DNA from: a virus
DNA: 64,000 bases
Reading direction: 5' to 3' (one strand)
IMG/VR virus record: IMGVR_UViG_3300025167_000008
Coordinates: 15,561-79,560 of that record
The position numbers were made by a program, and so were the translations under genes. The notes under the pieces were generated by a model. It saw nothing but the letters and a program-made list of their open reading frames with translations. It was not told the DNA's origin and ran no database searches. Shown one piece after another: positions 3,940 through 48,925 of the stretch (position 1 is its first letter; each line of letters starts with the position of its first letter).

Positions 3940-4437
3940 ATGGCTGATGCATTACTTTATTTTAGAACAAATGGAACAAAAACAACTAATCCATTATTTA
4001 CAGATCCAAATGATTTGCCTATTGGACAGAAATTACAATTTACTTTGCCTGAAGAATTATTGGAATCTATTTCACTTGTACATGAAAATAATATAAAAGA
4101 TTCACCAGTATCAAATCCTGCTGGAAAAAGAGTGATTAATAAACAGGATAACGGATTAAATGGACTTACACTAACATTCAAAGGTCGTTTTAGGGATGCT
4201 AGTATAGATTTAGCAAAAATACAGAATTTTGCAATACAATTACAAGTTGAAGGACAATTTCATCAATATGGTGTATTTGGGTTTAAGGCATCTAATACAA
4301 TTTCAACTCCATTTAATTTTGATCCTACAGATAAATTTGGACTTACAATAAAAAAATTGTCAATTTCAAGAACAGGAGGCAAACCTAAAAACTTTGATTT
4401 TGAATTAATCTTAACTTCTGGAGGAGAATTACAATGA
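3940..4437 (+). CDS. Putative distal tail (Dit-like) protein
   Basis: 165 aa beta-rich protein between tape-measure candidate and hub; synteny only. Confidence 0.35.
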   Translation: MADALLYFRTNGTKTTNPLFTDPNDLPIGQKLQFTLPEELLESISLVHENNIKDSPVSNPAGKRVINKQDNGLNGLTLTFKGRFRDASIDLAKIQNFAIQLQVEGQFHQYGVFGFKASNTISTPFNFDPTDKFGLTIKKLSISRTGGKPKNFDFELILTSGGELQ

Positions 4438-7646: not shown

Positions 7647-7656
7647 GGTGATATAA

Positions 7657-11835: not shown

Positions 11836-11869
11836 TAGCCTAATAGGTTATATAGAAGAATATGGTAAT

Positions 11870-12118
11870 GTGGCTATGGCAATAAGTGATGAAGTTCTCG
11901 AAGAATTGATTAATAAACTCTATGTAAGTTTAAAAGCAAAAGTAGACGCAGAAAGACAATTAAATCAATTTATCGATGCTTTAATATCTATAAGAAAGCT
12001 AGAAGATGGTTCTTTATCTATAGATATATTTACAGGACTTCCAATAACGGAAGAAAGAAGAAGTGAAATACTAGAAGCGACAATAAGAAACTCAATTCAA
12101 TTTGTCGGGGGTGAATAG
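11870..12118 (+). CDS. Hypothetical protein after tail fibre
   Basis: ORF with normal composition, TATA-like element upstream. Confidence 0.5.
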   Translation: MAMAISDEVLEELINKLYVSLKAKVDAERQLNQFIDALISIRKLEDGSLSIDIFTGLPITEERRSEILEATIRNSIQFVGGE

Positions 12119-12120
12119 TA

Positions 12121-12426
12121 ATGAGTAAGAACAAAGGTGTAAAACAAATGGTTGGTGCAAAATCAATACCTAACCCAAAAGGAGCAGAACCAAAAACTCC
12201 ACAACAGCCAGAACAACCACAAATGACTGAAGATCAAGCATTTATGGCTTATATAAACCAACTAATGAGTAATATCATATTGGAACACGAAAATGCAAAA
12301 ACATCTTCCATAGAGGCAATAAAAAACATAGGTCAAAAACTAAATCTTTACATGAGGGAAGTAAGTCGATTAACAAAGGAAAACGAAACACTTAAGAAAC
12401 AAGTAGATGAACTAAAAAAGAAGTAG
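12121..12426 (+). CDS. Small coiled-coil protein (possible fibre chaperone)
   Basis: C-terminal heptads (EVSRLTKENETLKKQVDELKKK), GGTGA SD, position after fibre. Confidence 0.4.
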   Translation: MSKNKGVKQMVGAKSIPNPKGAEPKTPQQPEQPQMTEDQAFMAYINQLMSNIILEHENAKTSSIEAIKNIGQKLNLYMREVSRLTKENETLKKQVDELKKK

Positions 12427-12461
12427 TTCATTTATATTACCCTTTTTGGTAACTATGTGTA

Positions 12462-12872
12462 ATGGTTGAATTATCACAAGAAGAAAAAGACAAGCTTTGG
12501 GCTGACTTGAAAGTTCAATGGCAAATTGTAAAAGGTAAAGGAGAGGGAGCAGAAAAAGCAAAGAAACGGATAAATATGATACAAAAAGTGCTTGACTTAG
12601 AAATAACTGATTTTGATAAAGAAGAACCAACTAAAGAAGTAAAAGAATACACTGATTCTGAAGCAGAAGAACAATTTACAGAACCACAAATGGATTTAAT
12701 GGAAAAAGCAGTTAAAAAATCAATAGCACTGAAACATATATTGACAGGAATGATAATTAAACATGATCCAAAACTAAAAGGTAACGCACCGGGAATTGGA
12801 CAACACGTAAATATAACATATGATTTAATAAAAGAAGAATTAAAAGAATTAATGAAGAATGATAAGAAATGA
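12462..12872 (+). CDS. Hypothetical charged protein
   Basis: TTTATATT at 12431, ATG 31 nt downstream; coupled to next gene by ATGA. Confidence 0.6.
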   Translation: MVELSQEEKDKLWADLKVQWQIVKGKGEGAEKAKKRINMIQKVLDLEITDFDKEEPTKEVKEYTDSEAEEQFTEPQMDLMEKAVKKSIALKHILTGMIIKHDPKLKGNAPGIGQHVNITYDLIKEELKELMKNDKK

Positions 12873-13108
12873 ATGTAAAGTCAATGATAAAACTTGATGG
12901 TGAAATTGCTAGTTTTGATGAAAAATTATTTGGATCGAGTGATTCGTTAAAAGGTATTAAAGTTCTTATAGAAGTGGCAGTAAAAGAAATAGAGGAAAAA
13001 AGACCTGAAATGAAAGATAAAAAAATAGAAATAATTACAGAATTTGAAGATGGATTTTTTCTCGTATTGGGAAAAAACCCACAAGAGGTAACTGAATTTG
13101 ACACCTAG
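12869..13108 (+). CDS. Hypothetical protein
   Basis: ATGA overlap with upstream gene, overlaps radA start. Confidence 0.5.
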   Translation: MNVKSMIKLDGEIASFDEKLFGSSDSLKGIKVLIEVAVKEIEEKRPEMKDKKIEIITEFEDGFFLVLGKNPQEVTEFDT

Positions 13109-14360
13109 AAAGAGTAAAGAAGGTATAGATAATGAAGATGGACTAGTCGTAGAGAAAACTAAAGAAGAAATTGAAAAACAATTAGAAGAAGTAGAAAAAG
13201 TATGGGAGTTTAATTTGTCAGACTTGGAGGGAATAGGCCCCATAAAATTAAAAAAATTAAACAGTCATGGTATTTTTAAAGCGGAAGATTTGTTAATTAG
13301 AGGAGCAAACGAATTGGCAGAATTATTGGAATTAACTCCAGATAAAACCCAAAAAATGATAGACGATGCAAGGGATTATTTAGAAAAACATGATGTTGTA
13401 GGTAAAGCTGTAATAGATGGATTATCGTTACTTAATTATAGAACAGAAAAAATAAAATATTTACGAACAGGTGCATCAAATTTAGATGAAGCATTGGGGG
13501 GAGGATATGAAACAGGTGTTATAACAGAATTATACGGAGAATTTGGTAGTGGAAAAACACAATTTTGTTTGGTAGCATCAGTTTTAGCACAACTACCAAT
13601 AAAAAAACAATGTTTTGAATGTCATGAACAATTTGATGACTCTGAATTAATTAGATGTCCTAAATGTAATGTGAAATTAGAAACAAAAGGAGGAGGGTTA
13701 TCATTGCCTAATCACCCATGTAAAGTATTATATATGGATACTGAAAATTCTTACAGATCTGATAGAGTACTTACAATAGTAAAAGAATTAGGTTTAGTAA
13801 AAACAAAACCACAATCAATAACAGAAGAAAAAAGAGGAGATGAAAAAGAATTTTTAAATGAAGAAGAAAAACAAAAAGCATATGATTTTATAAGAAACAC
13901 ACTAGTAATGAAACCAAGTAATGCATCTAGTCAATGGATGATGGGACAAAAATTTGTGGAATATATGGAAAAAGATAAGGAAAAACAAGTAAAATTAATT
14001 ATTATTGACTCTTTAACTAATCACTTTAGATTAGATTATAGTGGAAGGGGAGAATTGTCTAATAGACAAGTGCTTTTAAATCAACATGTGAAACACATAT
14101 CAAGATTGGCAGAATATAAAAATGTTGTAATTTTAGTAGCGAATCAAGTACAACAAGATTTATCAATGCTTGGTTATGGTGATAAAACAAAACCTATTGG
14201 TGGTATGACTTTAGGTCATGTTATAACACATAGAATATATTTAAAAAAGAAAGGAAATAAAGGAATAATTATAGCCCACTTGGTAGATTCACCAAATCAT
14301 GCTAAAACAGAAGCTGTATTAGTACTTACTAAAAAAGGCATCGAAAACGGAGAAGGATAA
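13098..14360 (+). CDS. radA: Archaeal RadA recombinase with zinc-ribbon insertion
   Basis: N-terminal HhH (LSDLEGIGP), TGASNLDEALGGG, Walker A GEFGSGKTQ, Walker B LIIIDS, YSGRGELSNRQ, NQV, PIGG, LVDSP. Confidence 0.95.
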   Translation: MTPRKSKEGIDNEDGLVVEKTKEEIEKQLEEVEKVWEFNLSDLEGIGPIKLKKLNSHGIFKAEDLLIRGANELAELLELTPDKTQKMIDDARDYLEKHDVVGKAVIDGLSLLNYRTEKIKYLRTGASNLDEALGGGYETGVITELYGEFGSGKTQFCLVASVLAQLPIKKQCFECHEQFDDSELIRCPKCNVKLETKGGGLSLPNHPCKVLYMDTENSYRSDRVLTIVKELGLVKTKPQSITEEKRGDEKEFLNEEEKQKAYDFIRNTLVMKPSNASSQWMMGQKFVEYMEKDKEKQVKLIIIDSLTNHFRLDYSGRGELSNRQVLLNQHVKHISRLAEYKNVVILVANQVQQDLSMLGYGDKTKPIGGMTLGHVITHRIYLKKKGNKGIIIAHLVDSPNHAKTEAVLVLTKKGIENGEG

Positions 14361-19080: not shown

Positions 19081-21069
19081 ATGATTACAATGGATGATTT
19101 TGAATATATTGAAAAAATAGCTGATTTTTTCATACAAGATAGAATAAATGATATTAATAATCTAAAGCCAGATTCGACAATTAACATTTCACTATATGAA
19201 AACAAAATATTTGGTGAATTGTTGAACGACAAAAGAGAAAAATTTAGAAAGATTTTAAGAGAATCAATAATAAGGGCATATATAAAAAATAACCTGAAGG
19301 ATACTGATGTATCAGAAATAGATAAAATAATAAATCAATATAGAAAAATAAGCATGATAATTCATATTGATAAATCAGTTGAAATGGGAGAGATTAATGC
19401 AGAAGAACATGAAAGAAGAATAATAACATTTCCATGTGAAATACAAACCATATCTGATCCAAAAACAATACCAATAACAGAAATATTTGTTTGTAATGAA
19501 TGTGAGGAAGATATAACATATAATTATGATCCAGACAGAAGACGGGCTCCAGACTGTCCAACATGTAGAGGAAGAACAAAAAATGATGGAATAGGAGAAA
19601 GTGAAACTGTTGTGACAGTATATTTAAAAGAAATAGTTGGTGATAAAAATAAACGTAATCCAATTAGATTTATGGCTGATATACACGGAGAACAAGCAAG
19701 ATTAATAGACTATAATCAAAAGGTAATGGTAACTGGTATATTCAAATCAATACCTCCAAATAATGCCAGAAACAAATCAAAAATTAAAAGTGAAATTTTG
19801 ATAGATGTAGTTACATTAAAATCAATGGAAATAGACAAATCGGGAAAAATGGATATTTCATCTGCAGAGAAGATGAAACAATTAGCAAAAGATGGCAAAT
19901 TAATAGACATGTTGGTAAACAGTTATGCACCACACATAAAATATGGTGATGAAGGAAAATTAGCATGTATTTTGAATTTAACAGGAGGAGTAAGACAAGA
20001 TAACTATAAAGATCGAATTCATATTTTTCTTTGTGGTGATCCTGCTACTTCCAAAACAGAAATTGCTAATTGGGCGATTGAAATTACTCCCAACTCAATT
20101 ATAGTTGATGGAACAGGTTCAACAGGTGTGGGACTTGGTGCTGGTCAAATCAAATTGCCAGATGGTTCACCAAGTATGTCATTGGGGCCTCTCGTAAAAA
20201 ACGACTACGTTGTTATAAACGAACTGGATAAAATGAAAAGTGAAAATTACAATATGTTATTAGAAGCTTTTGAAAACGGAAGATGTAGTAGAGATATAGC
20301 TGGTATGAACGTATCATTCCATACAAATGTTTCCATAATAGCGACTGCTAATCCTATTGGTTCCATATGGGATTTAAAACATCCTAGTATAGCAGAAAAT
20401 GTTGACATCAAACCTCACATGTTATCAAGATTTGATTCGATGATTAGATTTTTAAACATACCAAACAAGATAAGAGATAGGGCTATTACAGATCACATTA
20501 GAAAATGGAGAGCTGGTAAAATAATACCACCATTTAATAAAGATGAATTAATGCGTTATATTAATTCTGTTAGAGATTTAATTCCCCACATGTCAGAAGA
20601 AACGGAAAAATATTTGTCAGATTTTTATGTAGAAAGAGAAAATTATCAACAGGACGAAAACTCAATTAATATGGATCAAAGACAATACGGAGCATTGGTT
20701 AGAATTGCATATGCATTCGCTAAACTTTTGTTCAAGGAAGAAGTTGATAAAGAATGTATAGATATAACATTAGATTTTTATAAAAGATGTATAGAAAGCT
20801 TTGGGTTATCATATGAGAAAGGAGGAAGCTTCAGTGAGGCAAGCAATAATTTAATGAAGTATACTGAAACAAAAGATAAAACATTTCTTCGTCTTTTTAG
20901 AGAATTGGAAAAAGAAAAAGGAGATGTATTTAAAAGCGAGTTAGCAACAAACATGAGTAAAGAAATACACTGGAAAACTTATGATGACGCAATTACTCAT
21001 ATAAATGCACAACATGATAGAAATATCATTATAGAAAAGCCAAATGAAAGGTTGAAATTGGTTAATTAA
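19081..21069 (+). CDS. mcm: MCM replicative helicase
   Basis: Zn finger CNEC...CPTC, OB fold (KVMVTGIF), IHIFLCGDPATSKT, STGVGL, INELDKM, LLEAFE, IIATANP, SRFD arginine finger. Confidence 0.93.
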   Translation: MITMDDFEYIEKIADFFIQDRINDINNLKPDSTINISLYENKIFGELLNDKREKFRKILRESIIRAYIKNNLKDTDVSEIDKIINQYRKISMIIHIDKSVEMGEINAEEHERRIITFPCEIQTISDPKTIPITEIFVCNECEEDITYNYDPDRRRAPDCPTCRGRTKNDGIGESETVVTVYLKEIVGDKNKRNPIRFMADIHGEQARLIDYNQKVMVTGIFKSIPPNNARNKSKIKSEILIDVVTLKSMEIDKSGKMDISSAEKMKQLAKDGKLIDMLVNSYAPHIKYGDEGKLACILNLTGGVRQDNYKDRIHIFLCGDPATSKTEIANWAIEITPNSIIVDGTGSTGVGLGAGQIKLPDGSPSMSLGPLVKNDYVVINELDKMKSENYNMLLEAFENGRCSRDIAGMNVSFHTNVSIIATANPIGSIWDLKHPSIAENVDIKPHMLSRFDSMIRFLNIPNKIRDRAITDHIRKWRAGKIIPPFNKDELMRYINSVRDLIPHMSEETEKYLSDFYVERENYQQDENSINMDQRQYGALVRIAYAFAKLLFKEEVDKECIDITLDFYKRCIESFGLSYEKGGSFSEASNNLMKYTETKDKTFLRLFRELEKEKGDVFKSELATNMSKEIHWKTYDDAITHINAQHDRNIIIEKPNERLKLVN

Positions 21070-24907: not shown

Positions 24908-26530
24908 ATGCCTGACCTTTCATCTAGAGATATCAGCAATGATATGTCCTTAGCGACAGCAAGTGAAAGTGAAATTTGGAACAGTTTAAGTCCAGAAACA
25001 AGAGCTATAATTCTAGGTCGGGATATAGCAAATGAGGCAAACATTTCTAATAACACAAAAAATGTATACCAAGGAGATTTGAAAAGTAACTCATACGAAA
25101 CTATGAGTTATTATTCACTTCCTCCCTCAGCACAATTCTATGTTTCTAATAGATTGCATGAAATGGGATACTTTAGTGATTCTTATGGAGCAAATGTATA
25201 TGAAGTAGAGGGTGACAGTAGATACAAATGTAAAGATTGTGAAGAAACATTTACTGCAGAAGAAGATTTTAGAGTTCACAGAAAAGTGAATCATGACAAT
25301 GAAGAAAGCGAAACAGAAAGTCGAGAGGCTTATTCTCGATCACTTTATATTGATCCAGACTTGACAAAAGATAATTTAAAGTGGGCAAGACAAATATTAA
25401 GAGGAGAATCTGCAAGACAAACATTTCCACAAAATGATGCACCAACAGTAACAGAACCAAAACTTCCAAAAGGAAAGAAAGGATATGATGATAATCCAAA
25501 TCATTACTTTTATGATAATAAATTATTTAAGAGAGGAACAAGAACACCATATGAACAGGAAGGAAGACCAGCTTCAGAAGCAAGTCTTTTAATTGAGTTA
25601 GAATCAGAAATTCTAGACAAATATGGATGGGAATCTACCAAGGATGTAGAAAAAGATCCTGCTAACAGAGAAATATATACATCAGAAGTGGCACAAAAAG
25701 TTACTGCAAATGAATTACATCCAAGAACATTAAGAATTTTAGATCATGTTAATAAACCACTTTTATTTAAGACATTGTTAAGACTTGGTGCAGTAGAAAC
25801 ACAGCCAGAAGAATGGAAAGAACAAGTAATAGATGAAAAACCAATACATCAAGATTATGATCCAGAACATCCACATGAACACAATGACTTTGATACATAT
25901 TTTAGTGACAAAGTAGCAGAAGAAGATATTTCAGAAGAAGAACACACAGGCAAACACACAGAGATGGCAGATGCAATACAAAGAGAGAATCCAGATTATT
26001 CAAGGGATAGAGCAATGAAAATAGCAAATGCACAAATTAACAAATATGGATTAGAATCACATTCAAACAAGAAAGTGCCAGATTTACTTAAGGAGGTAGA
26101 TATAAGTGTAATGGAAGTGGAAGCAGAAGAATATAATGCTGATGAGAAAGAAGATGTAAAAGCAACCGAAGCAAGAATATTATCATCTTATGTAGGAAGT
26201 AAAACTAAAGGCGGGGAATCACTCGCGGATATTATGGAAGGTGCATTAGATGTACCCGTAGAAAAAGAAACTGTTAATGAAGTAATTTATGACAGAAAAC
26301 TTGATGGTTATCATGAGGATAAAATAGCAAGAGAACTATTTATTAATCACGGATTAGAATATGAAGACGCTATAAGACAAATAAGAAGCGTTGAAGTTTC
26401 AGATGACGATAGAGTAGCAAAGACTTTATTTGGAAAAAGGTTATCTGAATGTAATAAAGCCGAGGTTGGTGAAATGAGACTGTACGCTGGTGAAGCCAAA
26501 AAGAATACTACGGGTGTAAGATATGATTGA
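24908..26530 (+). CDS. Large acidic modular protein 1 (putative virion cargo polyprotein)
   Basis: TATA-like 24871-24887 favours ATG 24908 over 24848; C2H2 finger; A-x-E linkers (IANE, TANE, VAEE, KATE). Confidence 0.75.
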   Translation: MPDLSSRDISNDMSLATASESEIWNSLSPETRAIILGRDIANEANISNNTKNVYQGDLKSNSYETMSYYSLPPSAQFYVSNRLHEMGYFSDSYGANVYEVEGDSRYKCKDCEETFTAEEDFRVHRKVNHDNEESETESREAYSRSLYIDPDLTKDNLKWARQILRGESARQTFPQNDAPTVTEPKLPKGKKGYDDNPNHYFYDNKLFKRGTRTPYEQEGRPASEASLLIELESEILDKYGWESTKDVEKDPANREIYTSEVAQKVTANELHPRTLRILDHVNKPLLFKTLLRLGAVETQPEEWKEQVIDEKPIHQDYDPEHPHEHNDFDTYFSDKVAEEDISEEEHTGKHTEMADAIQRENPDYSRDRAMKIANAQINKYGLESHSNKKVPDLLKEVDISVMEVEAEEYNADEKEDVKATEARILSSYVGSKTKGGESLADIMEGALDVPVEKETVNEVIYDRKLDGYHEDKIARELFINHGLEYEDAIRQIRSVEVSDDDRVAKTLFGKRLSECNKAEVGEMRLYAGEAKKNTTGVRYD

Positions 26531-29500
26531 TTGTGGAGTTTGTGGAAAAGGGTTTAATACTAACGAAGAATATAAAAATCATGTAGAACAGGCTCATGAA
26601 GCAATGAATGATACTTATTCAGAAGCATTTTGTAAAGCAAATGAAGAAACCACAGCATGGGATTTACAAGTTTGTCGTAAATGTGGAAATTCAAGAGTTC
26701 TTCAAGAGGATACAGGTTATTGTGCCCAATGTTCAAAGAAATTAGAATCAAGGGAAGTCAACTGGAGAGATATAGGAGATAAAAAAGTTATAGATAAGGG
26801 ATCACATTATGAAACTGAAGATGGTACATTAGTTGATTGGTCATCATATGATGCAACAGACGCACAAAAATACTTAAGTAAAAAAGTTAATGAATCAAAA
26901 GCAAATGAAGATGATATGGATGATTTGCAATATAAACAACAGTTTGGACATGATTGGCGTGATGATAAAGCAAAATCAAAGAAAAAAGAAAAAGAAGGCG
27001 ATGAAGGAGGGGCAAGAGGATTATCAAGTCAAGAACAACCATTAAAAAAAGTAGATTCATTATCAGAATCATGGGGAGTATTAGAAAAAGAAAAGAAAGC
27101 ACAATTATTTGAATCATTAGGAATTAATCAAGGTAGTGCATATACATTAGCAGATTTAGATTGGTTTAACTTATCTCCACAACTTAAAGCCGATGCTTCA
27201 GAAGCATATGCAAAAGAAGAAGATGAGTTAGTAATAGATAATGATGAAGATTTGTTTGCTTTACATAAAGGACTTATGGATAAACCAATAAAAGATGATA
27301 AGGAAAAAGAGGTTAATGAAGCCTATGCAGATATTTATAACATAGAGAAAAATCATTTATCGCCTGATTATAAAAAAAAAGCTATAGAATGTAGTAGATG
27401 TAACGAGAAGTTTTATAATAGTAAAGAAAGAGACGTTCATTTTAATGAATTCCATGCAACTGAACAAGAATATAATTTACCTGAAGAATGTCCTTTTTGT
27501 AAGGAATTAATTAAGGAGCCAGAAACATTGGATTATCACATGCAACAAGAGCACGGAGCCCATGTACCAAGTCAATATACTCAAACAGGAATTCAAGGAG
27601 CAATGGCAGATACAGATTTTGATTCTTTAGGTTCTGATTTTTATTCAGAAGCATTTGATAGTGATTGGGCTTGTCCTAGATGTGGTAATAAAAAAGTAAC
27701 TATAAAGAAAGATGAAAATGGAAATCCTATTGGTAGAGCATGTCCTAAATGTGGTTTGGGAAATGAAGTAAAAGCAACTGAATCAAAGTGGAGAGTTAAT
27801 ACAATTACACATGGTAAGGTTAACGTTAATTTGGGTAAAGATGCAAATGAAGAAGATGCATTAAACGCAGTTAAAAGAATGTATTTTGATGATGGATATA
27901 TAGATGATAGTGATATTTTATCTGCAAACAAACTTAGTGATGAAGCAATTAATTTTGGTAAACATCAAACATGTTCGATATGTGGACAAGATTTTGAATT
28001 GAGTGGTGTAAGTGCTGATAGTGGATGGGGTTCACATGACACAGAAGGAAACAGAATAGTGCGTAATGACAGATTAAATCAAATTGCACATTATGACTGC
28101 GTAGAAGCAAGTGGTGAAGATATGAGTCCTTTAGGTGAATCTTATGCAAATGAAGAACATACACATAATTGGGAACAAGTAGGAGATGCTGATGGAGACA
28201 GAACATTTGAATGTACTGGATGTCCAGCGAAATTATGGGCTCATCCCGGTCAAAGTAAAGAAGAAGGAGATATTTATTATGGATATCTTGGTCAAGAATC
28301 AAAAACAAATGAAGCAAATTGGACAGATTTCGGACATGTAAGTGATCCTAATTTTAGAACTAATTGTACTGATGGAGAACCACACGTTCCAAAAGAAGAC
28401 AAACAAAATGATATATGTATTAAATGTGGTAAAAATATACGAGAAACAGGAGAAGGTTCAGGTTATTGGTTTACAGATGAAGATAACAGAAATTGGAATA
28501 GAACATATAATGAATCAAAAGCAACAGAATGGAGTACTGGAATATCAAGTAAAGATCCAACTGCAATAACACAATTAGAAGCAAAATTAGCAAGACTTGA
28601 AGAAGAAAAAACAGAGATAAAAGCAAGACCAATAGTACCACGAGATTGGAGTTTTTCGCCAGAAGATAGTAGGGGATTTGAATTAACAAATATAAATGCA
28701 AACATTAGAAGTGTAAAACAAAGAATAGAAGATTTAAAAAACAGAGCAGGAGAAGCAAAAATTCCAAGCGGTGATCTTTATCAACATGGGCAAAAAGTTG
28801 GAACTATTACAGATTATAATCCAAAAAAACATGAAGGGTATGTAACACTTGATGGTATTGGTATAAAAGAATTTGGAGCAATGACATCAGATTATGAAGT
28901 AAGAGTTAATGGTGAAAGAATTCCTAACAAATGGGATGGTAAACACGATTATAATTTAGATTTGTTTGGAGAAGCATATAACGATGATATGGTATTACGA
29001 GCACTTGATACTCCAGACGCAAATAATGAAGGTTTACCAATACATGCACAAGGAGTATATTGGAGATGTGATTTGTGTGATTATAAAACATATTTCATGG
29101 GAACTTTTGATAATGCAGATCCAATAAAACCACATTTAAAAGAAGAACATGGTATAGGTGAATCATATGCAAAAGAAGACGGAGGTTATGCAAATTTTGG
29201 TGATAAACCAAAAGAAGAATCATGGTCAGTATTAACAGTAGGATCAGATTTATGGTATTTTAATTCAGAACAAGAAGCAAGAGATTATGTCAAAAACTTT
29301 CCAAAAGGAACATATCAAATTAACCGTCCACGAGAAGGAAGAGAATCATATGCGAAAGAAATAAGCGGACAGTTTACGAGACAATGCCCTCATTGTGAAA
29401 AATTAATTAATGTTGATAAATTAAATGATCATATCAAAAAAGAACATAATGAAATAACTGAGGGTTTAGAAGATCCAGAATATAGAGTAAAATTATTTAA

Positions 29501-29696
29501 AGATATTGAGAAAAAACAAAAAGAAGATAAAGAAGAATCAAACGAAGACGATGATCATCCAAAAGGATGGGATAAAAGAAAGCCTGATATAGGTGGATAT
29601 GATCCAGAATTAGATGTTGATGATCCTCCAAGAAGACGGGATAAAAGACAACCTGAAATTGGAGGTTATGATCCAGAATTAGATTATGATGGTTGA
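26523..29696 (+). CDS. Large acidic modular protein 2 (putative virion cargo polyprotein)
   Basis: 1057 aa; nine E-x-x-[AT]-x-E linkers; multiple C2H2/C4 fingers; DUF3560-like helical module. Confidence 0.8.
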   Translation: MIDCGVCGKGFNTNEEYKNHVEQAHEAMNDTYSEAFCKANEETTAWDLQVCRKCGNSRVLQEDTGYCAQCSKKLESREVNWRDIGDKKVIDKGSHYETEDGTLVDWSSYDATDAQKYLSKKVNESKANEDDMDDLQYKQQFGHDWRDDKAKSKKKEKEGDEGGARGLSSQEQPLKKVDSLSESWGVLEKEKKAQLFESLGINQGSAYTLADLDWFNLSPQLKADASEAYAKEEDELVIDNDEDLFALHKGLMDKPIKDDKEKEVNEAYADIYNIEKNHLSPDYKKKAIECSRCNEKFYNSKERDVHFNEFHATEQEYNLPEECPFCKELIKEPETLDYHMQQEHGAHVPSQYTQTGIQGAMADTDFDSLGSDFYSEAFDSDWACPRCGNKKVTIKKDENGNPIGRACPKCGLGNEVKATESKWRVNTITHGKVNVNLGKDANEEDALNAVKRMYFDDGYIDDSDILSANKLSDEAINFGKHQTCSICGQDFELSGVSADSGWGSHDTEGNRIVRNDRLNQIAHYDCVEASGEDMSPLGESYANEEHTHNWEQVGDADGDRTFECTGCPAKLWAHPGQSKEEGDIYYGYLGQESKTNEANWTDFGHVSDPNFRTNCTDGEPHVPKEDKQNDICIKCGKNIRETGEGSGYWFTDEDNRNWNRTYNESKATEWSTGISSKDPTAITQLEAKLARLEEEKTEIKARPIVPRDWSFSPEDSRGFELTNINANIRSVKQRIEDLKNRAGEAKIPSGDLYQHGQKVGTITDYNPKKHEGYVTLDGIGIKEFGAMTSDYEVRVNGERIPNKWDGKHDYNLDLFGEAYNDDMVLRALDTPDANNEGLPIHAQGVYWRCDLCDYKTYFMGTFDNADPIKPHLKEEHGIGESYAKEDGGYANFGDKPKEESWSVLTVGSDLWYFNSEQEARDYVKNFPKGTYQINRPREGRESYAKEISGQFTRQCPHCEKLINVDKLNDHIKKEHNEITEGLEDPEYRVKLFKDIEKKQKEDKEESNEDDDHPKGWDKRKPDIGGYDPELDVDDPPRRRDKRQPEIGGYDPELDYDG

Positions 29697-29699
29697 TTA

Positions 29700-32600
29700 A
29701 TGATGAAAGAATATGAATCAGACGAAGGAAGATGGGATTATACGGAAGGCGACAAGCCTGAATCACAAACAACTGATTATGATCCAGAAGAATTAGAAAG
29801 AGCAAGAATAAGAATGAAAGCAGAAAAGAAAAGAATAGAAGATCCAGAAATAGGTGTATTCGATTGGGAACTTGAAAAATCTGGAGAACCATTTCAAAAG
29901 GGACAAGAAATGGATATAAGCCACAAAAAATGTCCACATTGTAATTTTGAAACTTCATTTAAACCTGATGACCTTTGGCAAGAAACAGATGCTGATACTG
30001 AATTAGATACACATATTAGAAATAAACATGGAATTAATGAGTCAACATCAACAGAAAGTGTAACAAGTTGGTGGGGTAGTGCAAGTCCAAAGAACTTAGA
30101 GTTCAGAAGCAAGGCATTAGATAAAATTAATGCAAATACAGATTTACAAGATAAAGAGTTTTGGGAATTACCTGAAGATATACAAGATAATATTTATGAA
30201 CTTTATACAAGTGGATATAGTAATGAAGCAACTGAGGAACGAATTAATACAGATACATACCACTATGATTATAGTGATTATTGGAAAAAAGGAGATTCTT
30301 ATGTAAGAGCAGGATTAGCAATGGGATCTGGACTTTCAACAGATACAGCTAATAAAGAATGGGATGAACTTACGAAAGAAGAACAAATAAAGATTTTAGA
30401 ATCGGGTTATGTAACGTCTTATGAATCAGTGGCAGAAGAAGATGGACAATGGGTAGACTTTGATGATAATCACAGAGTAAGACAACCAACAATTAGTGAT
30501 ATTCCAGATATAGCAAAAAGCATGTTTCAAGGTTATAGTCAAAAATTAAAGAAAAAATTTGGTGATGAAGATATAGACGGTCATACTCCAGAGGAAATGA
30601 TAAAAAGAGAACATGAATTAATGGGAGAACAACCAAAGGAAGAAGAAAAGAAAATACATCAACAACTTGAGAAAGAATTTGGTGATGAAGAATCAACTGT
30701 AAGTGTATCAGGCCCTCCCGCGGGAACACAACCCCCAGCAAATATATGGGATGATTTAGATAAAGCAGAAGAAGACTTTGTAGAACAAGAACATCCACGG
30801 GAACAAACAGGAAAATTTACAACTAAAGGTGGAGGAAGTTCAAAAGCAGGACAACCAAAAGAAAAAAGCAAGAAAGAATTTACACTTAAAGATTATGAAA
30901 GAAATGAAGGTAGAAATGCTCATACATTAAATGCATTAAACTTGGTAAAAAAATATGGTACGCCAGAAGAAATTAAAGAAATGGAAGAAATAAAAGATAG
31001 ACATGATAAAAGTGAACACGGTATCAATCATGATGATTATAAAAGAAGATATGATATATCACAAAAATATTATGATAAATTAGTTGAAGATGAAACAGGG
31101 GAAAAACCATTTTGGGCTAAAGATGAACCAAAAACAGAAAAACCAAAAGAAGAAAAGAGGTTTACACTTAAACAATATGAAAGAAACGAAGATGTAAATA
31201 ACCATGGTAAAAATGCACAGTTATTGGTAAAACAATATGGTACTCCAGAAGAACTTGAAGAAATAAATGCTATATTAAAAAGAAATCCAAATGGATATAG
31301 TGGTGTTGATGGACATGCTGATTATCAAAGAAGACATGAAATATCAAACAAATATTATGATAAGTTAGTGGAAGATGAAACTAAATCTAATGAATCAAAT
31401 GCAAATGAATTTGAGCCAGAAAGACAAGGAAGAAAAGTTAAGATTAACAAGGGAACTTATGCGGGACAAACAGGGAGAGTAGGAGCAATACCATTAATAG
31501 ATGATAGTTCATTTTTTGTAAGAGTAGATGGAGTTCACAATGAATATGAAGATGGGATACAAGTAAATGTAAACGATGTCACATTCTTGGGGGGAGAAGT
31601 AAAATATGATTTGTATGAAAAAGTTGAAGAGGTCAAAATACCAAATCAAGATATAGAACTTCATAAATATGTATGGGAATCAATGTACGGATATGGTAGT
31701 GCAACAGGAAGAATGTCACCAGTTGAAGATTGGAACCAAGGAGGAAGTTTTGAACATCCATACAGTGAAATATTTCGTGAATTTAGAGGATTAAAATGGA
31801 GTGAATTACCCAAAGATATACAAGATGCATGGAAAGCAGAAAGGGATTATGCACCATATGATAGTGAATCACATGTAAAATCTGATATAAAAGGTTGGTT
31901 AGATAAAACTTTTCCTACAGAATATGAAGAACCACAAAAAGGACTTGATTCAGAAACAAAAGCCGATGAAGATTGGTATGATACAGATGATTCAAATTAC
32001 AAGCCAGAAGTATTAAAATATAAAATAGTAACGTCATTAGGAAATGACTGGGGACTTCAAACTAATAGTAAAGCAGAAGCACAAAGAGCAGTTGATGAAT
32101 GGAATAATGATTATGAGAAATCAGTTAGTGGATCATTACCATATACATTAAAAATAGTTGATAATGAATCAGTAGATGATCCAAAAGATATTAAACTTTT
32201 AGATAGATTATTGGATAATGAATTAGAAGAGGAAAAAGAAGGTGAAGATGAAGAAGAAGATATTGCAATATTACTACAATTATTAGCCCCTGATGAAAAA
32301 GCCAATGAAGTAGATCCAAATTGTCCAGAATGTGGAGGAGATGGATATATAGACGTACCAAGTAGATGGTCTTCTGATGGTTTAAGACAAGAACCATGTC
32401 CTAGATGTGGGGGAGAAGATGATTATCATGATACATATGATGAATCATACAAAAAAAAAGCTACTGAATTAGATTCTATTTATAAACAATTCACAGGTCA
32501 AATAAATGCACCAACAGGTAAAGGTATAATGGATAGTGTGAGGGGATATAGTGAACCTGAAGCAGATGGACAAGATTTGACTGGTACTACAGCAAATGAG

Positions 32601-33467
32601 GAAATAATAGAAAAAACTCCACCTAAAATTAATTATCAATATTATAAACAATATCCATTTGGTAGAATACAAAAAGGATTTTTTGGGGAAGTAGATAGAA
32701 AATGGTGGGAAACTGCATCATATGAAGAGAAAGCAAAAGAATTAAGTGATATAGGATTTGGAATGGGTGCTGATATAGGCGAGAAAGGAAATCCATTAGC
32801 AAGAAGAAGTTGGGACGACCTACCAAATGAAGCAAGACAACAATGGGGTTATTTTGGTAATGAAGTGGAGCTGTCAACAATGTACCAAGCAAGAGATTGG
32901 TGGGACAAAAAATATCCAGATAGACTATGGAAGGATATGCATATAGACGGAAGACAAAGAGCAATCATGGCATTTTTAAGAGATCCAGACACTGAGTTAA
33001 AATCAGAGGAAGGAGGTCAAGGTAGTGGAAGAAAACCATATGCAAGTAAAGACCCAGCAAGAAAAGACAGAGCACATGTAGGTTGGAAGAATCAAGGAAT
33101 AGATAAATATACAGATTTGGCAATGAAAGATTATTTAACGGGAAAAAAATCAACTCCAGAAGAATATGAATATGCTGGATATCATGCCTCAAAAGAAGTA
33201 GAGGATCAAAAATGTGAAGGTTGTGGTAGAGAAGAAGATTATTTAAATGATGATAATTTATGCGAAGATTGCGAAAGAGAAGCAGGGATAGATCGCGAAG
33301 AATCAAAACGTGATGCTTATGAAGGTGGAAAAGGAAGTGGTAAAAAAGGACATCAACAATGGATGAGATCATTGGAAGAAGATCCATCTTATGGTGAATG
33401 TAAAAATTGTAAAGTTATTACCGAAAAAGTTAATAATAAATGCCAAATGTGTGGTAGAAAGTACTAA
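29700..33467 (+). CDS. Large acidic modular protein 3 (putative virion cargo polyprotein)
   Basis: 1255 aa; ESVAEE/ESNANE/ETKADE linkers; HPR...GKF and GGxGSG motifs; internal tandem duplication; several Zn fingers. Confidence 0.8.
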   Translation: MMKEYESDEGRWDYTEGDKPESQTTDYDPEELERARIRMKAEKKRIEDPEIGVFDWELEKSGEPFQKGQEMDISHKKCPHCNFETSFKPDDLWQETDADTELDTHIRNKHGINESTSTESVTSWWGSASPKNLEFRSKALDKINANTDLQDKEFWELPEDIQDNIYELYTSGYSNEATEERINTDTYHYDYSDYWKKGDSYVRAGLAMGSGLSTDTANKEWDELTKEEQIKILESGYVTSYESVAEEDGQWVDFDDNHRVRQPTISDIPDIAKSMFQGYSQKLKKKFGDEDIDGHTPEEMIKREHELMGEQPKEEEKKIHQQLEKEFGDEESTVSVSGPPAGTQPPANIWDDLDKAEEDFVEQEHPREQTGKFTTKGGGSSKAGQPKEKSKKEFTLKDYERNEGRNAHTLNALNLVKKYGTPEEIKEMEEIKDRHDKSEHGINHDDYKRRYDISQKYYDKLVEDETGEKPFWAKDEPKTEKPKEEKRFTLKQYERNEDVNNHGKNAQLLVKQYGTPEELEEINAILKRNPNGYSGVDGHADYQRRHEISNKYYDKLVEDETKSNESNANEFEPERQGRKVKINKGTYAGQTGRVGAIPLIDDSSFFVRVDGVHNEYEDGIQVNVNDVTFLGGEVKYDLYEKVEEVKIPNQDIELHKYVWESMYGYGSATGRMSPVEDWNQGGSFEHPYSEIFREFRGLKWSELPKDIQDAWKAERDYAPYDSESHVKSDIKGWLDKTFPTEYEEPQKGLDSETKADEDWYDTDDSNYKPEVLKYKIVTSLGNDWGLQTNSKAEAQRAVDEWNNDYEKSVSGSLPYTLKIVDNESVDDPKDIKLLDRLLDNELEEEKEGEDEEEDIAILLQLLAPDEKANEVDPNCPECGGDGYIDVPSRWSSDGLRQEPCPRCGGEDDYHDTYDESYKKKATELDSIYKQFTGQINAPTGKGIMDSVRGYSEPEADGQDLTGTTANEEIIEKTPPKINYQYYKQYPFGRIQKGFFGEVDRKWWETASYEEKAKELSDIGFGMGADIGEKGNPLARRSWDDLPNEARQQWGYFGNEVELSTMYQARDWWDKKYPDRLWKDMHIDGRQRAIMAFLRDPDTELKSEEGGQGSGRKPYASKDPARKDRAHVGWKNQGIDKYTDLAMKDYLTGKKSTPEEYEYAGYHASKEVEDQKCEGCGREEDYLNDDNLCEDCEREAGIDREESKRDAYEGGKGSGKKGHQQWMRSLEEDPSYGECKNCKVITEKVNNKCQMCGRKY
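30879..31382 (+). repeat. Tandem ~73-aa coding duplication (30879-31097 and 31161-31382)
   Basis: FTLKDYERNE...KYGTPEE...KYYDKLVEDET versus FTLKQYERNE...QYGTPEE...KYYDKLVEDET. Confidence 0.92.
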
Positions 33468-34044: not shown

Positions 34045-34875
34045 ATGCAAAAACTGGCATCACTATTAGCGATTTTGTTAATCGTGGGATTATTAGGTAC
34101 AAATTTCGCATATGGGGATTATACAGAATACATGAAAATAAGAATAGAATCTGATAAACCAAATGTTTGTGTATTTGAAGCCGAAAACCCACAAGTAGAT
34201 TTTGCAAAAAGAGGACTTTATAAAAAAACCGTAAAATGGATAAGTGAATGGTCTAAACAACTGGAAAAAGAAGCCAATGGAGGTAATTGGGATTTTACAT
34301 ATGAATTCATACATAATTCTACTCACTTTGATAAAAAACCAACAGATTTCCCTCAATGTAATGTATTGATAGTATTTGATGCCGAGAATTTAAATCCAAT
34401 AGAAAGTGATTTAGGTATGGCACAAGGATACACATCTTTTGATTATAGAAGTTCAACTCATAAATTTTCATTTATAGATATTTTCACATTTGCACCAACA
34501 AATGAAATAAATTTAGGTCAATTAGATTTTACCAATATGACAAAAAATGCAGATGGCTCATATGAAGTAAAATTAGGTAAAGAAATGTTTACATCAGAAC
34601 CAATTTCTGATGAAGCAATTAGAATAGTTATTCAACATGAATTTGCTCATGCAATGGGATTAGGTCATTGGAGTGATACAACCAAAAATGATTTTAAATC
34701 GATCATGGTTCCACAATTTGATGTACGAGCAAAAGGATTAGAAAATATAAAAATAACACTTGATGATATCAAGGCATTAATAGAACTTTATGGTGAAGAT
34801 GGATTTAGTAAATATTATCAAGTTCTAATTCCAGATTTAGCATATGGATGGGAAAAATCAGTAATGAAAAATTAG
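34045..34875 (+). CDS. Secreted matrixin-like (M10/metzincin) zinc metalloprotease
   Basis: N-terminal signal peptide (MQKLASLLAILLIVGLLGTNFAYG), HEFAHAMGLGH, Met-turn SIMVP. Confidence 0.82.
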   Translation: MQKLASLLAILLIVGLLGTNFAYGDYTEYMKIRIESDKPNVCVFEAENPQVDFAKRGLYKKTVKWISEWSKQLEKEANGGNWDFTYEFIHNSTHFDKKPTDFPQCNVLIVFDAENLNPIESDLGMAQGYTSFDYRSSTHKFSFIDIFTFAPTNEINLGQLDFTNMTKNADGSYEVKLGKEMFTSEPISDEAIRIVIQHEFAHAMGLGHWSDTTKNDFKSIMVPQFDVRAKGLENIKITLDDIKALIELYGEDGFSKYYQVLIPDLAYGWEKSVMKN

Positions 34876-35106: not shown

Positions 35107-36176
35107 TGGAAATTATATTTAATGAAAAAGAATGGAAGGAAGCTAACGAAAAATACATAGAAGAATCAATAAAAGATGAAATTTTAAAAAGAATAAGAAA
35201 AAGAAAAATGGAGTTACCATATCCTAAAGTAACGTTGGATGAGGCAAAAGAAGATTTTAAAAAATTACAGGGATTAAACACTGAAGAATTATGGAAAAAT
35301 GGTGATTTTTATTTCAAATATGATTACGAATTACCTCATGGAGATACATATATTGAATTATCCACAATAGGAAATAAGTCGTCAAATTACTTTCATCAAG
35401 AAAACAGAATGAAATGTGACTCGTTAAATTCACCTAGTCCTTATAGGGTATGGAATTCTGATAAGTTTATGAAGACATTATTTGGTTCGTTATGGACAAT
35501 GAATGTAAAAGAAGTAAACAGTAAGACTTTATGGAGTTCAATAGTTTTAAGAAAATATGTAGCATCACAATTTAAACCATCAGTGGCAAAAGCAATTTAT
35601 AATAAATATAATTCTAAAAACGTTCTTGATTTGTCAATGGGATGGGGTGATAGATTAGCTGGTTTTCATGCATCTAACGCGGAAAGATATATTGGTATAG
35701 ACCCCAACGAGAAATTGTTTAGTGGATATGGAGATCAATATCTGACATATAGGACTGGAAAAGAGTCATTATTTATAATAAAGCCTGCAGAAGAAGTAGA
35801 GTATAAAGGAGAAGAATTTGATACAATATTTACTTCTCCACCATATTTTGATACTGAAAGATATTCCATTGCAAATACTCAGTCATGGATAAGATATAAA
35901 ACATTGGATGATTGGCTTACTAAGTTTTTGTTTACTTCAATAGAAAAGGCGTGGGGTGCGTTAAAAAGAGATGGAATTCTTTTAATTAATGTTTCTGATG
36001 CATATGGTCATCATAAGGTACAAAAAATATGTGACCCCATGAATGAGTTTATAACTACTTTAAAGGGTGCTGAATATGAGGATGCCATAGGAATGAGAAT
36101 GGCTAAAAGACCAAATCAGAATACTCATAAAGAAGGAATATTTTGTGAACCAATATGGGTATTTCGTAAAAAGTAA
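35106..36176 (+). CDS. DNA amino-methyltransferase (N4-C/N6-A, SPPY type)
   Basis: VLDLSMGWGDRL (motif I), YIGIDPN, FTSPPYF (motif IV). Confidence 0.85.
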   Translation: MEIIFNEKEWKEANEKYIEESIKDEILKRIRKRKMELPYPKVTLDEAKEDFKKLQGLNTEELWKNGDFYFKYDYELPHGDTYIELSTIGNKSSNYFHQENRMKCDSLNSPSPYRVWNSDKFMKTLFGSLWTMNVKEVNSKTLWSSIVLRKYVASQFKPSVAKAIYNKYNSKNVLDLSMGWGDRLAGFHASNAERYIGIDPNEKLFSGYGDQYLTYRTGKESLFIIKPAEEVEYKGEEFDTIFTSPPYFDTERYSIANTQSWIRYKTLDDWLTKFLFTSIEKAWGALKRDGILLINVSDAYGHHKVQKICDPMNEFITTLKGAEYEDAIGMRMAKRPNQNTHKEGIFCEPIWVFRKK

Positions 36177-36336
36177 ATGAGGCTATTTTTTGGTGGCTGA
36201 ATCCTGCCTCAAGGCTTCAATGCATTTCAGTTTTTTCCTTTTTTTATACTTGTTAGGAGTCTCAATGACTGCGTGACTTTCAAGCACTTTTAATAAGAAC
36301 AATAGGAAATATAAACTTTATTTTGTACAACTTTAC

Positions 36337-36375
36337 ACACAAGGGTTTATATACCCCTTAGTACATACCCATGAT
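36337..36375 (+). promoter_or_regulatory. Conserved palindromic TATA promoter, copy 2
   Basis: ACAAGGG TTTATATACCCC TTAGTACATA; ATG 30 nt after TTTATATA start (36346 to 36376). Confidence 0.8.
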
Positions 36376-36891
36376 ATGAAACAAACATTAACAACAGAAG
36401 ACGTAGACTCAATTATTGGTGCTATTGAAATTGCTGAAGATGAAAGCGGTGGAGATTATTCCGACTTAAAAACAAAACTTTTAACCATTTATCCAGAAAC
36501 AAAAGACTTGATTGATGAACGTAATAGAAAATGGCAAGAAGAAAGTGATACACAAAGACTTGCAAGAGAGAGAATAACAAGAATTATATTTCATGCACTT
36601 AAAAAAGGTGAACCAATTATATCTCAATTACAGTACATGATTGGTGGTACAAAAACCTATAATATGATTAGAAAAAACTATAGTGATGAAATATGTTTAT
36701 CTGCCGATTTATTCAAGTACCACTTAGAAGATTTAATAGAATTGGGATTAATAGCAGAACTTAGAGATTACATTAAACAGGAATCTAAAGAAGATGGCAA
36801 TGAATGGATGAAAGATCATTATAAAGATAAAGCAGATGACCAATTATGGCATGTATTGGTAAAAATCTTAGACAGAGTAAAAAGATCCTAA
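36376..36891 (+). CDS. Hypothetical protein (leaderless)
   Basis: Directly downstream of conserved promoter. Confidence 0.65.
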   Translation: MKQTLTTEDVDSIIGAIEIAEDESGGDYSDLKTKLLTIYPETKDLIDERNRKWQEESDTQRLARERITRIIFHALKKGEPIISQLQYMIGGTKTYNMIRKNYSDEICLSADLFKYHLEDLIELGLIAELRDYIKQESKEDGNEWMKDHYKDKADDQLWHVLVKILDRVKRS

Positions 36892-36987
36892 TCATTTATA
36901 TTATGTAATTAGTAACTACTTATGATACATATTCCCAAGACAAGCGACCATCATATCGTTTTGTAACTTGGGGTAATATGTATTTGA

Positions 36988-37061
36988 CCACGGACAACGG
37001 TTTAGGGAATTTTTCCGTGATTTCATTGTCAGATAGGTGCCTCTGTCCGTGGAGCCCTATC
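36988..37061. other. Overlapping inverted repeats upstream of prim-pol (structured RNA or origin candidate)
   Basis: CCACGGACA 36988-36996 / TGTCCGTGG 37044-37052; GATAGG 37032-37037 / CCTATC 37056-37061. Confidence 0.5.
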
Positions 37062-37095
37062 AATTTATATTAAGGCTTAACATAAATGTGGTAAT

Positions 37096-38079
37096 ATGAT
37101 TCAAGGATTTGTAAAGCTTTACAGGGAAAAAGGACTAAATGTAATACCACTTAAACCAAAGTCTAAATTTCCAGATGAAACAAACATGCCAATAAATCCA
37201 CAAACTGGTAAGCGTGGTTGGAAAATATATCAAACTGAAAAGTGTAATATAGAAATTAAAGAAGGGCAAAATGGAGCAGTGCTTTGTGGTGAATCATCGG
37301 GTAATTTAGTGGTTATAGACCTTGATGATCGTGAGTTATCAAAAGTTTTTGATGACTGGGAAAAAAGAAAAAATGAAACATTAATAGTTGAAACTGGAAA
37401 AGGATATCACGTATGTGTTAAACCAAAAGGAAAGTTGCCAGAAAAAAGCTTAAGATTAATAAATGATAAAGGTCAACGTATAGACATTCAATCACAAGGA
37501 ACTTACGTATTAATTCCGGGTTCAATTAATCCAGAGACTGGTAAAGAATATAAAATAATTTCAAGTACATTGGATATACAGGATATAGACTTGGATGGTT
37601 TCATTAATAGTTTATCGAATCATGGGTTCAATCCAGAACGTATAAAGAAAGGAGTTGTTGAAATTTTAAAAGGTGTAAAAGAAGGAGAAAGAGATTATAG
37701 TGTATACACGCTTGGGGTAGCGATGAGACATAGTTTTGGTTTAAAAGATGCTGGATTATTATCATATCTAAATCATTTTAATCAAACATCGGTATTTCCC
37801 CCACTGCCAGATGTAGTGATAAAACAAAAAGTTCAAAGTGTGATGAACGCCGATGTTGAGAAAATTAGATTTAAAGAATTTTTAGAGAAATTTGATTTAA
37901 AAGAAGTAAAATTGAAATATGACGATAATTTTTGGAAAGATGTAGAAGATTTACGTATACACAATAAACTTCAATCTAAAGATTTAAAACTTGAATGTGT
38001 AATTTGTAAAAAATTGGTAGCATATAATCCACAAGATACTACACATAGGGGGCACATCATTACAATTATATACAAGTAA
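37096..38079 (+). CDS. Bifunctional DNA primase/polymerase (Prim-Pol) with PriCT-like domain
   Basis: GLNVIPL...K.P, GAVLCG...LVVIDLDD, VETGKGYHV, IDIQSQGTYVLIPGS, EGERD. Confidence 0.88.
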   Translation: MIQGFVKLYREKGLNVIPLKPKSKFPDETNMPINPQTGKRGWKIYQTEKCNIEIKEGQNGAVLCGESSGNLVVIDLDDRELSKVFDDWEKRKNETLIVETGKGYHVCVKPKGKLPEKSLRLINDKGQRIDIQSQGTYVLIPGSINPETGKEYKIISSTLDIQDIDLDGFINSLSNHGFNPERIKKGVVEILKGVKEGERDYSVYTLGVAMRHSFGLKDAGLLSYLNHFNQTSVFPPLPDVVIKQKVQSVMNADVEKIRFKEFLEKFDLKEVKLKYDDNFWKDVEDLRIHNKLQSKDLKLECVICKKLVAYNPQDTTHRGHIITIIYK

Positions 38080-48481: not shown

Positions 48482-48925
48482 ATGAGCGAAATACAAGAAC
48501 CAATGGAGCTAACTACCATAGATGTAGAAAACATGACTCCTAAAGAACAGGAGATATACCATAGAAGAATGCGTGTATTTGCTAATCTATTCGTACCGCC
48601 TGCAGTTAGGCTAACCCATGAAGCACTTGCCGAAAACGAAAAGGTAGAAAGGGATACTATAACAAGGGACATAAGGTGGATAAAGATAACATATCCAGAT
48701 TTATGGTCAAATGAACAAATAAAGCATGGATTTGCCTATAGTATGCTAAAAGTATCTAATATGTATGAAGTCATGATTAGGGAATTATACGATAGTTTTC
48801 AAGCCACAACTGATATATTCGAGAGAATAGCAATAGCTAAAGCGTTGAATGATTTAATGCCAACATACACCAATTCAAAGGCACATGGAGTAATCTTGGA
48901 AAAAATCAAAGGCACGGTGAAATGA
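48482..48925 (+). CDS. terS: Putative terminase small subunit
   Basis: HTH-like LTHEALAENEKVERDTITRDIRWIK, helical C-terminus, ATGA-coupled to terL. Confidence 0.6.
   Translation: MSEIQEPMELTTIDVENMTPKEQEIYHRRMRVFANLFVPPAVRLTHEALAENEKVERDTITRDIRWIKITYPDLWSNEQIKHGFAYSMLKVSNMYEVMIRELYDSFQATTDIFERIAIAKALNDLMPTYTNSKAHGVILEKIKGTVK

Follow-up and report, generated by a model that had tools for sequence, protein, structure and literature searches.

Polyproteins that are cut at defined sites are characteristic of RNA viruses and a few large DNA viruses of eukaryotes; to our knowledge, viruses of bacteria or archaea have no established strategy of this kind. MARTX toxins are modular effector arrays secreted by bacteria, in which the modules are cut free by an internal cysteine protease domain. 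Among described concepts, the polyvalent proteins that phages and conjugative elements encode (Iyer, Burroughs, Anand, de Souza, Aravind 2017, J Bacteriol; PMC5512222) come closest to the locus presented here. These authors drew the polyprotein analogy themselves; they noted a paucity of such proteins in archaea, almost all examples longer than 1000 amino acids (aa) being bacterial. Cleavage in phage heads is exemplified by the protease gp245 of SPN3US, which cuts after A-X-E (PMC10052503). The locus is an operon of three open reading frames (ORFs), A, B and C, in a 64,000-nucleotide (nt) stretch of viral DNA, called the window below, which comprises bases 15561-79560 of the 80,748-bp IMG/VR virus record IMGVR_UViG_3300025167_000008 (G000; rated 73% complete). 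It turned out that B, C and, more loosely, A form a hypervariable cassette-protein family of archaeal tailed viruses of about 145 kb. The cassette proteins string together dozens of small modules that are unrelated to each other; most are fingers of the C2H2, BED or zinc-ribbon type, accompanied by a small beta-barrel and helical units. A standard junction, [G/N]-E-S-[K/Y]-A-[K/N/T]-E, forms the module border at which modules are gained, lost and exchanged. Literature searches returned no description of this family, which we regard as a real and undescribed archaeal-virus form of phage polyvalent proteins or polyproteins.

An earlier note on this DNA, made from its letters, had listed twelve E-x-x-[AT]-x-E hexamers in three consecutive acidic ORFs (540, 1057 and 1255 aa). 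All twelve hexamers are present (Table 1), and the sizes and acidity of the ORFs are borne out, with isoelectric points of 4.7-4.9 and a Glu content of 10-13%. Not all of the hexamers are free linkers, since EAYAKE lies within a confident helix and EFHATE contains the last His of a C2H2 finger. The tight pattern E[ST]x[AT][NKTED]E occurs six times in B and three times in C, against 0.01-0.02 expected from composition-matched shuffles, and nowhere else in the six-frame translation of the window. The wider strict pattern E-[STVA]-x-[AT]-x-E has 11 matches across the six frames of the 80.7-kb G000, all in B or C (about 0.04 per protein expected from shuffles), 10 across those of G002, a syntenic sister record of 98.4 kb, all in the B and C orthologues, and none in the six frames of 81 kb of remaining genome pieces. 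The enrichment of the hexamer is at least 100-fold, and in about 260 kb read in six frames it is confined to B and C or their orthologues; ORF A carries no strict linker motif. Besides, B contains 10 copies of the tripeptide A-[NKT]-E and C contains 6, where 1.3 and 1.4 are expected, and the DNA pattern GAATCANNNGCANNNGAA has 5 matches against 0.01 expected from dinucleotide shuffles. The generic [AGS]-x-E site, whose enrichment the note had proposed as a check, is marginally enriched in B (p=0.06) and not in C (p=0.63).

Proteins that are acidic and rich in Glu, Lys and Ala could yield such hexamers as an artefact of chance or composition, and both the Glu content and the unenriched generic site in C would agree with this. 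However, 3-10 copies per protein are observed where composition-matched shuffles expect 0.01-0.13, the dinucleotide shuffles of the DNA also fall short, and other acidic ORFs have none. The shuffles and the family-wide conservation of the motif refute this explanation, which we give next to no chance.

B has 30 metagenomic homologues, none of them named and each spanning only part of it; neither tblastn of B against a phage collection nor a scan of IMG/VR with this one protein yielded a relative. The hexamer is present in 28 of the 30 homologues, with 1-10 copies each against 0.02-0.13 expected. The linker logo, built from 161 distinct instances in 36 proteins, reads [G/N]-E-S(66%)/A/V-K(41%)/Y(30%)/R/H-A(92%)/T-K/N/T-E-[D/A/E]; information is found only at the motif, the flanks holding at most 0.7 bit. 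In an all-against-all BLAST, 38 homology blocks begin exactly at the first Glu of the motif and 39 stop exactly at its last Glu, and 234 block ends lie near motifs compared with 109 +/- 12 under random motif placement. When the family proteins are cut at the motif, the median segment is 88 aa, and 105 short segments from the 36 proteins fall into 84 module clusters. For homologous motif-bounded modules of full length, the right-hand neighbours differ in 56 of 58 pairs, and a zinc module of 62 aa has the motif at both borders in 10 proteins, at differing positions. The BLAST block ends and the motif-bounded modules bear out the beads-on-a-string architecture with the motif as module junction that had been proposed, and the module order differs across related genomes with breakpoints at the motif. 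Exchange is seen among close strains as well. Contigs of co-occurring strains show 12 block replacements or deletions relative to the window, and 6 of the 24 breakpoints fall on linkers (1.6 expected, p=0.005); one replacement has both ends inside linkers, EVKATE and ESYAKE, 527 codons apart. A strain variant is shorter by exactly one C2H2 finger at window 27350-27482: the stretch KKK-A-I-E ... FH-A-T-E found here collapses to KKK-A-N-E in the sister virus (P0006), a cassette having been inserted or deleted between two A-x-E sites.

The three ORFs differ in how much of them is kept. Compared with the G002 orthologues, B is alignable over only 411 aa (54% identity) and C over only 476 aa (49% identity); A is 83.5% identical, and most genes flanking the operon are 85-95% identical between G000 and G002. 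The N- and C-terminal parts of A are kept in a 131-kb relative, and in two homologues (P0022 and P0026) an A-type N-terminus is fused to B-type modules. A and B overlap by 8 nt, the start of B lying ahead of the stop of A. C continues in the frame of B after a gap of one stop codon and one further codon (window 29694-29702), as it does in G002; read-through of the stop codon would join B and C into a protein of about 2300 aa.

To describe the modules, Pfam was run on 40 family proteins. Only C2H2, BED and other zinc fingers were found, together with a borderline LPD29 in 3 of the 40, near threshold (best 26.7 bits for a cut-off of 27), and no enzyme domain was detected; with this repertoire, the word “effector” in the earlier note is unfounded. 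The Atlas search of A returned zinc fingers only. The modules are autonomous units, some of which exist as stand-alone genes ending where the linker begins. For instance, the beta-barrel module of B has 15 relatives among 1.84 billion representative proteins, 4 of which are stand-alone proteins of 75-89 aa that run from an initial Met to ...FFGE, the point at which the linker begins. In another virus's polyprotein, a complete linker-bounded module is matched by a stand-alone gene of G002 that encodes 57 aa and ends in ...GERHAE-stop. For module 884-944, no stand-alone small protein was found.

In the AlphaFold 2 (AF2) model of B, confident islands are set between low-confidence stretches, with a mean predicted local distance difference test score (pLDDT) of 57.5 and half of the chain below 50. 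Seven of the 8 motif copies in B lie in low-pLDDT stretches or at island edges, which partly agrees with the claim that the sites mark domain boundaries; the test is weakly informative because more than half of the protein is of low confidence, and EAYAKE departs from the pattern. A short conserved motif in many copies per protein, amid unconserved and mostly disordered surroundings, would also suit a docking or modification motif, in which a host or viral factor binds or modifies the hexamer (e.g. at Ser, Lys or Tyr) and B and C act as multivalent decoys or sponges. Such a motif, however, would not require the strict placement between modules and at recombination joints, and no partner is known. 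We consider docking highly improbable.

At the linker, the peptide pattern is the stronger constraint: position 2 takes small residues, and position 4 is Ala in 92% of instances. Positions 3 and 5 vary, which limits the exact identity of any two linkers to short runs of 5-6 nt. Length variants with 1-3 extra basic residues (e.g. ESRKRAKE) retain both half-sites, which fits a peptide signal better than a DNA signal. The most economical reading is that B and C are polyprotein precursors which are processed at the junction, and judging from the sequences we put its probability at about 45%. The junction would be the recognition site of an endoprotease and would probably be cut after the second Glu, that is, after A-x-E. 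Cut in this way, B and C would release many small zinc-binding proteins, which would be the counterpart of the about 100 tiny genes that this genome carries separately in another part. More speculatively, the cutting enzyme might be encoded by the virus and tied to head assembly, the candidates being an undetected assemblin-type protease or the M34-like zincin P0048, and the fragments might travel inside the capsid.

Several observations weigh against processing. The match of the linker to an A-x-E head-protease site is one of sequence resemblance, and no peptidase domain was found in the 40 family proteins (Pfam, E<=0.001). The T4- or phiKZ-type prohead protease of the earlier note was not recovered: S77, S78 or ClpP-type enzymes gave no profile match (PF04586 and PF00574 in the genome, PF03420 in G001, a further sister record, and G002 only; no match at E<=10), a negative that covers these types and that divergent enzymes could escape. 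Profile searches for Phage_capsid (HK97), Portal_T4, Gp23, Phage_Mu_F and MPTase-PolyVal in G000 or G002 were empty as well, and P0047, probably the major capsid protein, is a lead from feature similarity and gene position only. The A-B-C operon sits in the replication module (MCM, Cas4-like, PIN, Dam ... PrimPol), and its synteny matches in the distant 131-kb relative, likewise within the replication module; it lies between Dam and PrimPol and not among head genes. In the AF2 model of B, 3 motif copies fall in predicted helices, one of them, EAYAKE, confident. Finally, all 27 linker codons for Ser are TCN, compared with a background of about 40% AGY, and 99 of 100 linker codons for Glu are GAA, counts whose p-values are inflated by duplicate linker copies from G001 and G002; this bias points to shared descent of the linkers or a constraint at the DNA level.

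The same codon bias fits linkers that serve as recombination joints. As to the proposal that conserved linker DNA allows module swapping, exchange breakpoints are found at linkers, and the DNA consensus is largely a product of codon bias, with Ser, always TCN, as the exception. The main rival to processing is an uncleaved connector, a neutral, soluble and perhaps helical spacer which is kept because it is where cassettes cross over, whether by microhomology or by gene conversion. In that case B and C would stay whole and serve as multivalent scaffolds of zinc fingers, just as most polyvalent proteins are transferred intact; N4 vRNAP, ArdC and TraC1 travel uncleaved (PMC5512222). The breakpoints at linkers, the Ser and Glu codons, the matches of the exact DNA pattern, the three copies predicted helical and the failure to find a protease all speak for such a connector. 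Shared runs of 5-6 nt, however, are poor microhomology, the peptide-level constraint is strong, with only small residues at position 2, the length variants retain two half-sites, and the stand-alone homologues show that modules work as separate small proteins. We regard an uncleaved connector as possible though doubtful.

For processing, a protease is needed, and the head region just upstream of the window contains a 732-aa ORF, P0048 (290 aa), an 85-aa ORF and P0047 (590 aa). The language-model features of P0047 resemble HK97-type capsid clusters (scores 0.90-0.91), a lead that no match at sequence level backs; a PDB sequence search with the profile of this capsid candidate gave noise only. 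For the 59 ORFs of at least 100 aa, A-[NKT]-E is enriched at p<0.02 only in B, C and P0047, A being borderline (3 sites, p=0.05). P0047 has 4 such sites against 0.74 expected, all within residues 8-185, in a low-complexity and coiled-coil N-terminal part of about 190 aa before the conserved body. In its orthologues of about 60% identity, A-[KR]-E-S-A-[KR]-P-R and S-A-[VL]-E-A-E-x-S-K-P-S-A-W are both invariant in the N-terminal part. The cluster in P0047 agrees with the suggestion that the capsid N-terminus bears the same site, circumstantially and to the extent that the capsid assignment, itself a lead, is right.

P0048, encoded directly upstream of the probable capsid gene, is the only protease-like gene found near it. 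Its HEIGH and N-E-x-H-x-E motifs are invariant in 34 sequences (H165, E166, H169 and E251/H253/E255). The AF2 model of P0048 has a pLDDT of 87, and its best fold match is the M34 lethal-factor catalytic domain (Z 9.0), below which come a putative Bacteroides zinc metallopeptidase, Pro-Pro endopeptidases (Z 6.9-7.3) and other zincin folds; the top twelve matches (VIA) are all zincin-type (HExxH) folds or lethal-factor-like domains, and its viral fold neighbours, which are weak, are minor capsid and polyvalent proteins. P0048 resembles the M34 zincins (lethal factor, PPEP-2 and PPEP-3) in the invariant HExxH with a downstream Glu and in the fold matches, but differs from them in having no family match at sequence level (Pfam and PDB sequences, the PDB search giving noise) and weak Foldseek E-values. 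Judging from the predicted fold, it may be a metallopeptidase of head maturation or of the processing of packaged proteins; its connection with the linker is a conjecture. A complex prediction of P0048 with a 35-residue linker segment scored 0.01, which counts neither for nor against it.

The earlier note had gone further: B and C would be packaged into the procapsid, a prohead serine protease of the T4 or phiKZ type would cut them after Glu, and the pieces would be injected with the DNA as an effector arsenal. A-x-E resembles the site of SPN3US gp245, A-[NKT]-E clusters in the N-terminal part of P0047, and LPD29, a polyvalent-protein domain, is found near threshold in three homologues; in a distant relative, a small motif-bearing module protein is encoded just upstream of the zincin gene in the head module. 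On the other side, the searches detected neither an assemblin-type protease nor an enzymatic or known anti-defence domain, the genes lie at a non-structural location, a capsid-targeting sequence was not identified, and the full hexamer is missing from all other proteins, the probable virion proteins included. We think this arsenal unlikely. A complete polyprotein strategy, in which a head-associated protease (P0048 being the best candidate) would cut E-S-x-A-x-E, dozens of zinc-finger proteins would be packaged and delivered, and the codons of the cut site would double as recombination joints, appears decidedly unlikely as a whole.

Two other proteins of the region were considered as the processing enzyme. 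ORF A was rejected, being poorly foldable and only zinc-finger-like. Two genes downstream of C, window 34045-34875 encodes a metzincin of 276 aa with HEFAHAMGLGH, a Met-turn and an N-terminal signal peptide, 92% conserved in G002. From its sequence, this enzyme is probably extracellular or directed to the envelope; owing to the signal peptide, it is an unlikely processor of B and C.

Compared with polyvalent proteins, B and C are likewise very large multi-module proteins of a tailed virus with rapidly shuffled architectures; polyvalent proteins have 2-15 or more disparate domains, and B has at least 8 motif-bounded modules, in a virus that encodes TerL, MCM and PolB. The zincin in the head module, with its polyvalent and minor capsid fold neighbours, is a further likeness, and LPD29, near threshold in three homologues, may be another. 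Unlike polyvalent proteins, the B/C family lacks enzymatic effector domains, and neither MPTase, MuF, ART nor methylase is embedded in it; in A, B and C themselves, none of the polyvalent signature domains was found (MPTase, MuF, ART, DarB-type helicase or methylase, ArdC-N, LPDs). The family's modules are very small, for the most part zinc fingers of 30-120 aa, and the genes lie in a replication module, whereas polyvalent proteins have a head, packaging or transfer gene context. A conserved inter-module linker is present here, while Iyer et al. describe none (PMC5512222, where the word “linker” occurs 0 times).

The internal head and ejection proteins of T4, phiKZ and SPN3US offer a second comparison. 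By sequence resemblance, B and C share with them acidity and repeated A-x-E sites, and the probable capsid protein P0047 has the same tripeptide clustered N-terminally. Those proteins lose N-terminal propeptides, whereas B and C are strings of unrelated modules, and in contrast to the A-x-E head sites the linker has six residues with a second invariant Glu and a Ser; neither a gp21- or gp175-type protease nor a PF12699 domain was found here. Like MARTX toxins, B and C are beads-on-a-string proteins with short inter-module sites and a strain-variable repertoire that changes by recombination, but no embedded protease or enzymatic effectors are seen in the B/C family.

The virus itself is known from metagenomes, its DNA being present in soil and sediment samples; the locus turned up in no RNA run. 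The GC content of the window is about 32%, and every gene is on the + strand. Named genes of the window encode RadA, NAMPT, MCM, an AAA_28 kinase, a Cas4-like nuclease, PIN, Dam, the secreted metzincin, a DNA methylase, PrimPol, a ParB-like protein, a helicase and TerL, and the operon is flanked by Dam on one side and by a Hjc-like nuclease, the metzincin and PrimPol on the other, with MCM upstream. Pfam and PHROGs searches on about 50 neighbouring ORFs named replication genes and TerL, and no capsid, portal or protease; no peptidase is listed in the Pfam tables of the remaining genome pieces. We extended the genome through identical proteins on longer metagenomic contigs until the walk ended at the left end of G002, and the composite genome closes at about 144.5 kb, in agreement with contigs of 131-145 kb that bear a more distant B homologue. 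This size is well above the about 110-120 kb implied by the CheckV completeness values (73% and 83%). To the right of the record's end, there are about 36 kb with about 100 ORFs of 30-150 aa, and also a family-B DNA polymerase (PolB) and large fn3 and Laminin_G proteins; G002 encodes PCNA. The replication proteins indicate an archaeal tailed virus, and a scan of GTDB genomes with MCM and RadA found no relatives.

Some neighbouring genes have features of their own. The MCM helicases of G000 (window 19081-21069) and G002 (35592-37568) are only 33% identical amid neighbours that are mostly 85-95% identical, which suggests that the replicative helicase gene was replaced. For TerL (window 48922-50760), the match in the sister records G001 and G002 spreads over about 2.4 kb for 600 residues, and a 212-aa ORF containing a helix-turn-helix abuts the gene there; TerL seems to be interrupted by an insertion in these records, perhaps an intron or a homing element. 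Upstream of the window (G000 4105-8304), a 1399-aa protein has a C-terminal RelA/SpoT nucleotide pyrophosphokinase domain (E 1e-19), and in a distant relative (L022:3949-4401) this domain is a separate 150-aa gene adjoining the zincin gene; by its domain content, the protein may be a virion-borne alarmone or toxSAS-like enzyme. In distant relatives (L021:8584-10305, L022:7367-9043), an archaeal-type CCA-adding tRNA nucleotidyltransferase is encoded between the zincin and capsid genes.

Table 1. Coordinates of the operon, its linkers and the upstream head genes (window positions unless G000 is named).
Feature	Position	Strand	Remark
ORF A	24908..26530	+	540 aa from ATG; 560 aa from TTG at 24848; C2H2 finger; first operon gene
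ORF B	26523..29696	+	1057 aa; cassette protein, 8 strict linkers
ORF C	29700..33467	+	1255 aa; cassette protein, 3 strict linkers and several A-[NKT]-E sites
ESKANE linker	26892..26909	+	at end of helix 111-124, opening of a low-pLDDT stretch; DNA-pattern match
EAYAKE	27201..27218	+	conserved core domain of B; within confident helix 219-236
EFHATE	27447	+	contains last His of a C2H2 finger
EVKATE linker	27765..27782	+	homology-block edge; strain-variant joint at 27776
ESYANE linker	28137..28154	+	low-pLDDT stretch
ESKTNE linker	28296..28313	+	homology blocks begin at B residues 588-592
ESKATE linker	28512..28529	+	homology blocks stop at B residues 665-669; DNA-pattern match
Small beta-barrel (SH3-like) module	28743..29006	+	B residues 741-828; five strands in AF2 model
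ESYAKE linker	29160..29177	+	homology-block edges at B residues 877-886; DNA-pattern match
ESYAKE linker	29343..29360	+	homology-block edges at B residues 939-946; strain-variant joint at 29358
ESVAEE linker	30423..30440	+	in C; DNA-pattern match
ESNANE linker	31392..31409	+	in C; DNA-pattern match; strain-variant joint at 31397
ETKADE linker	31953..31970	+	in C; strain-variant joint at 31972; following 66-codon module missing from G002
P0048	G000 11156-12028		upstream of window; HExxH...E, predicted M34-like zincin fold
P0047	G000 12331-14103		upstream of window; probable major capsid protein

In conclusion, even if the proteins remain uncut, they clearly exemplify modular protein evolution, through a conserved connector between modules that marks the joints of recombination. 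If processing at the junction is true, the family would be a simple case in which one standardised junction couples protein processing with cassette exchange, and an uncultivated lineage would supply a short portable cleavage motif with a matching protease. It would also explain how a large repertoire of small zinc proteins is diversified, which may have roles in host takeover or anti-defence.

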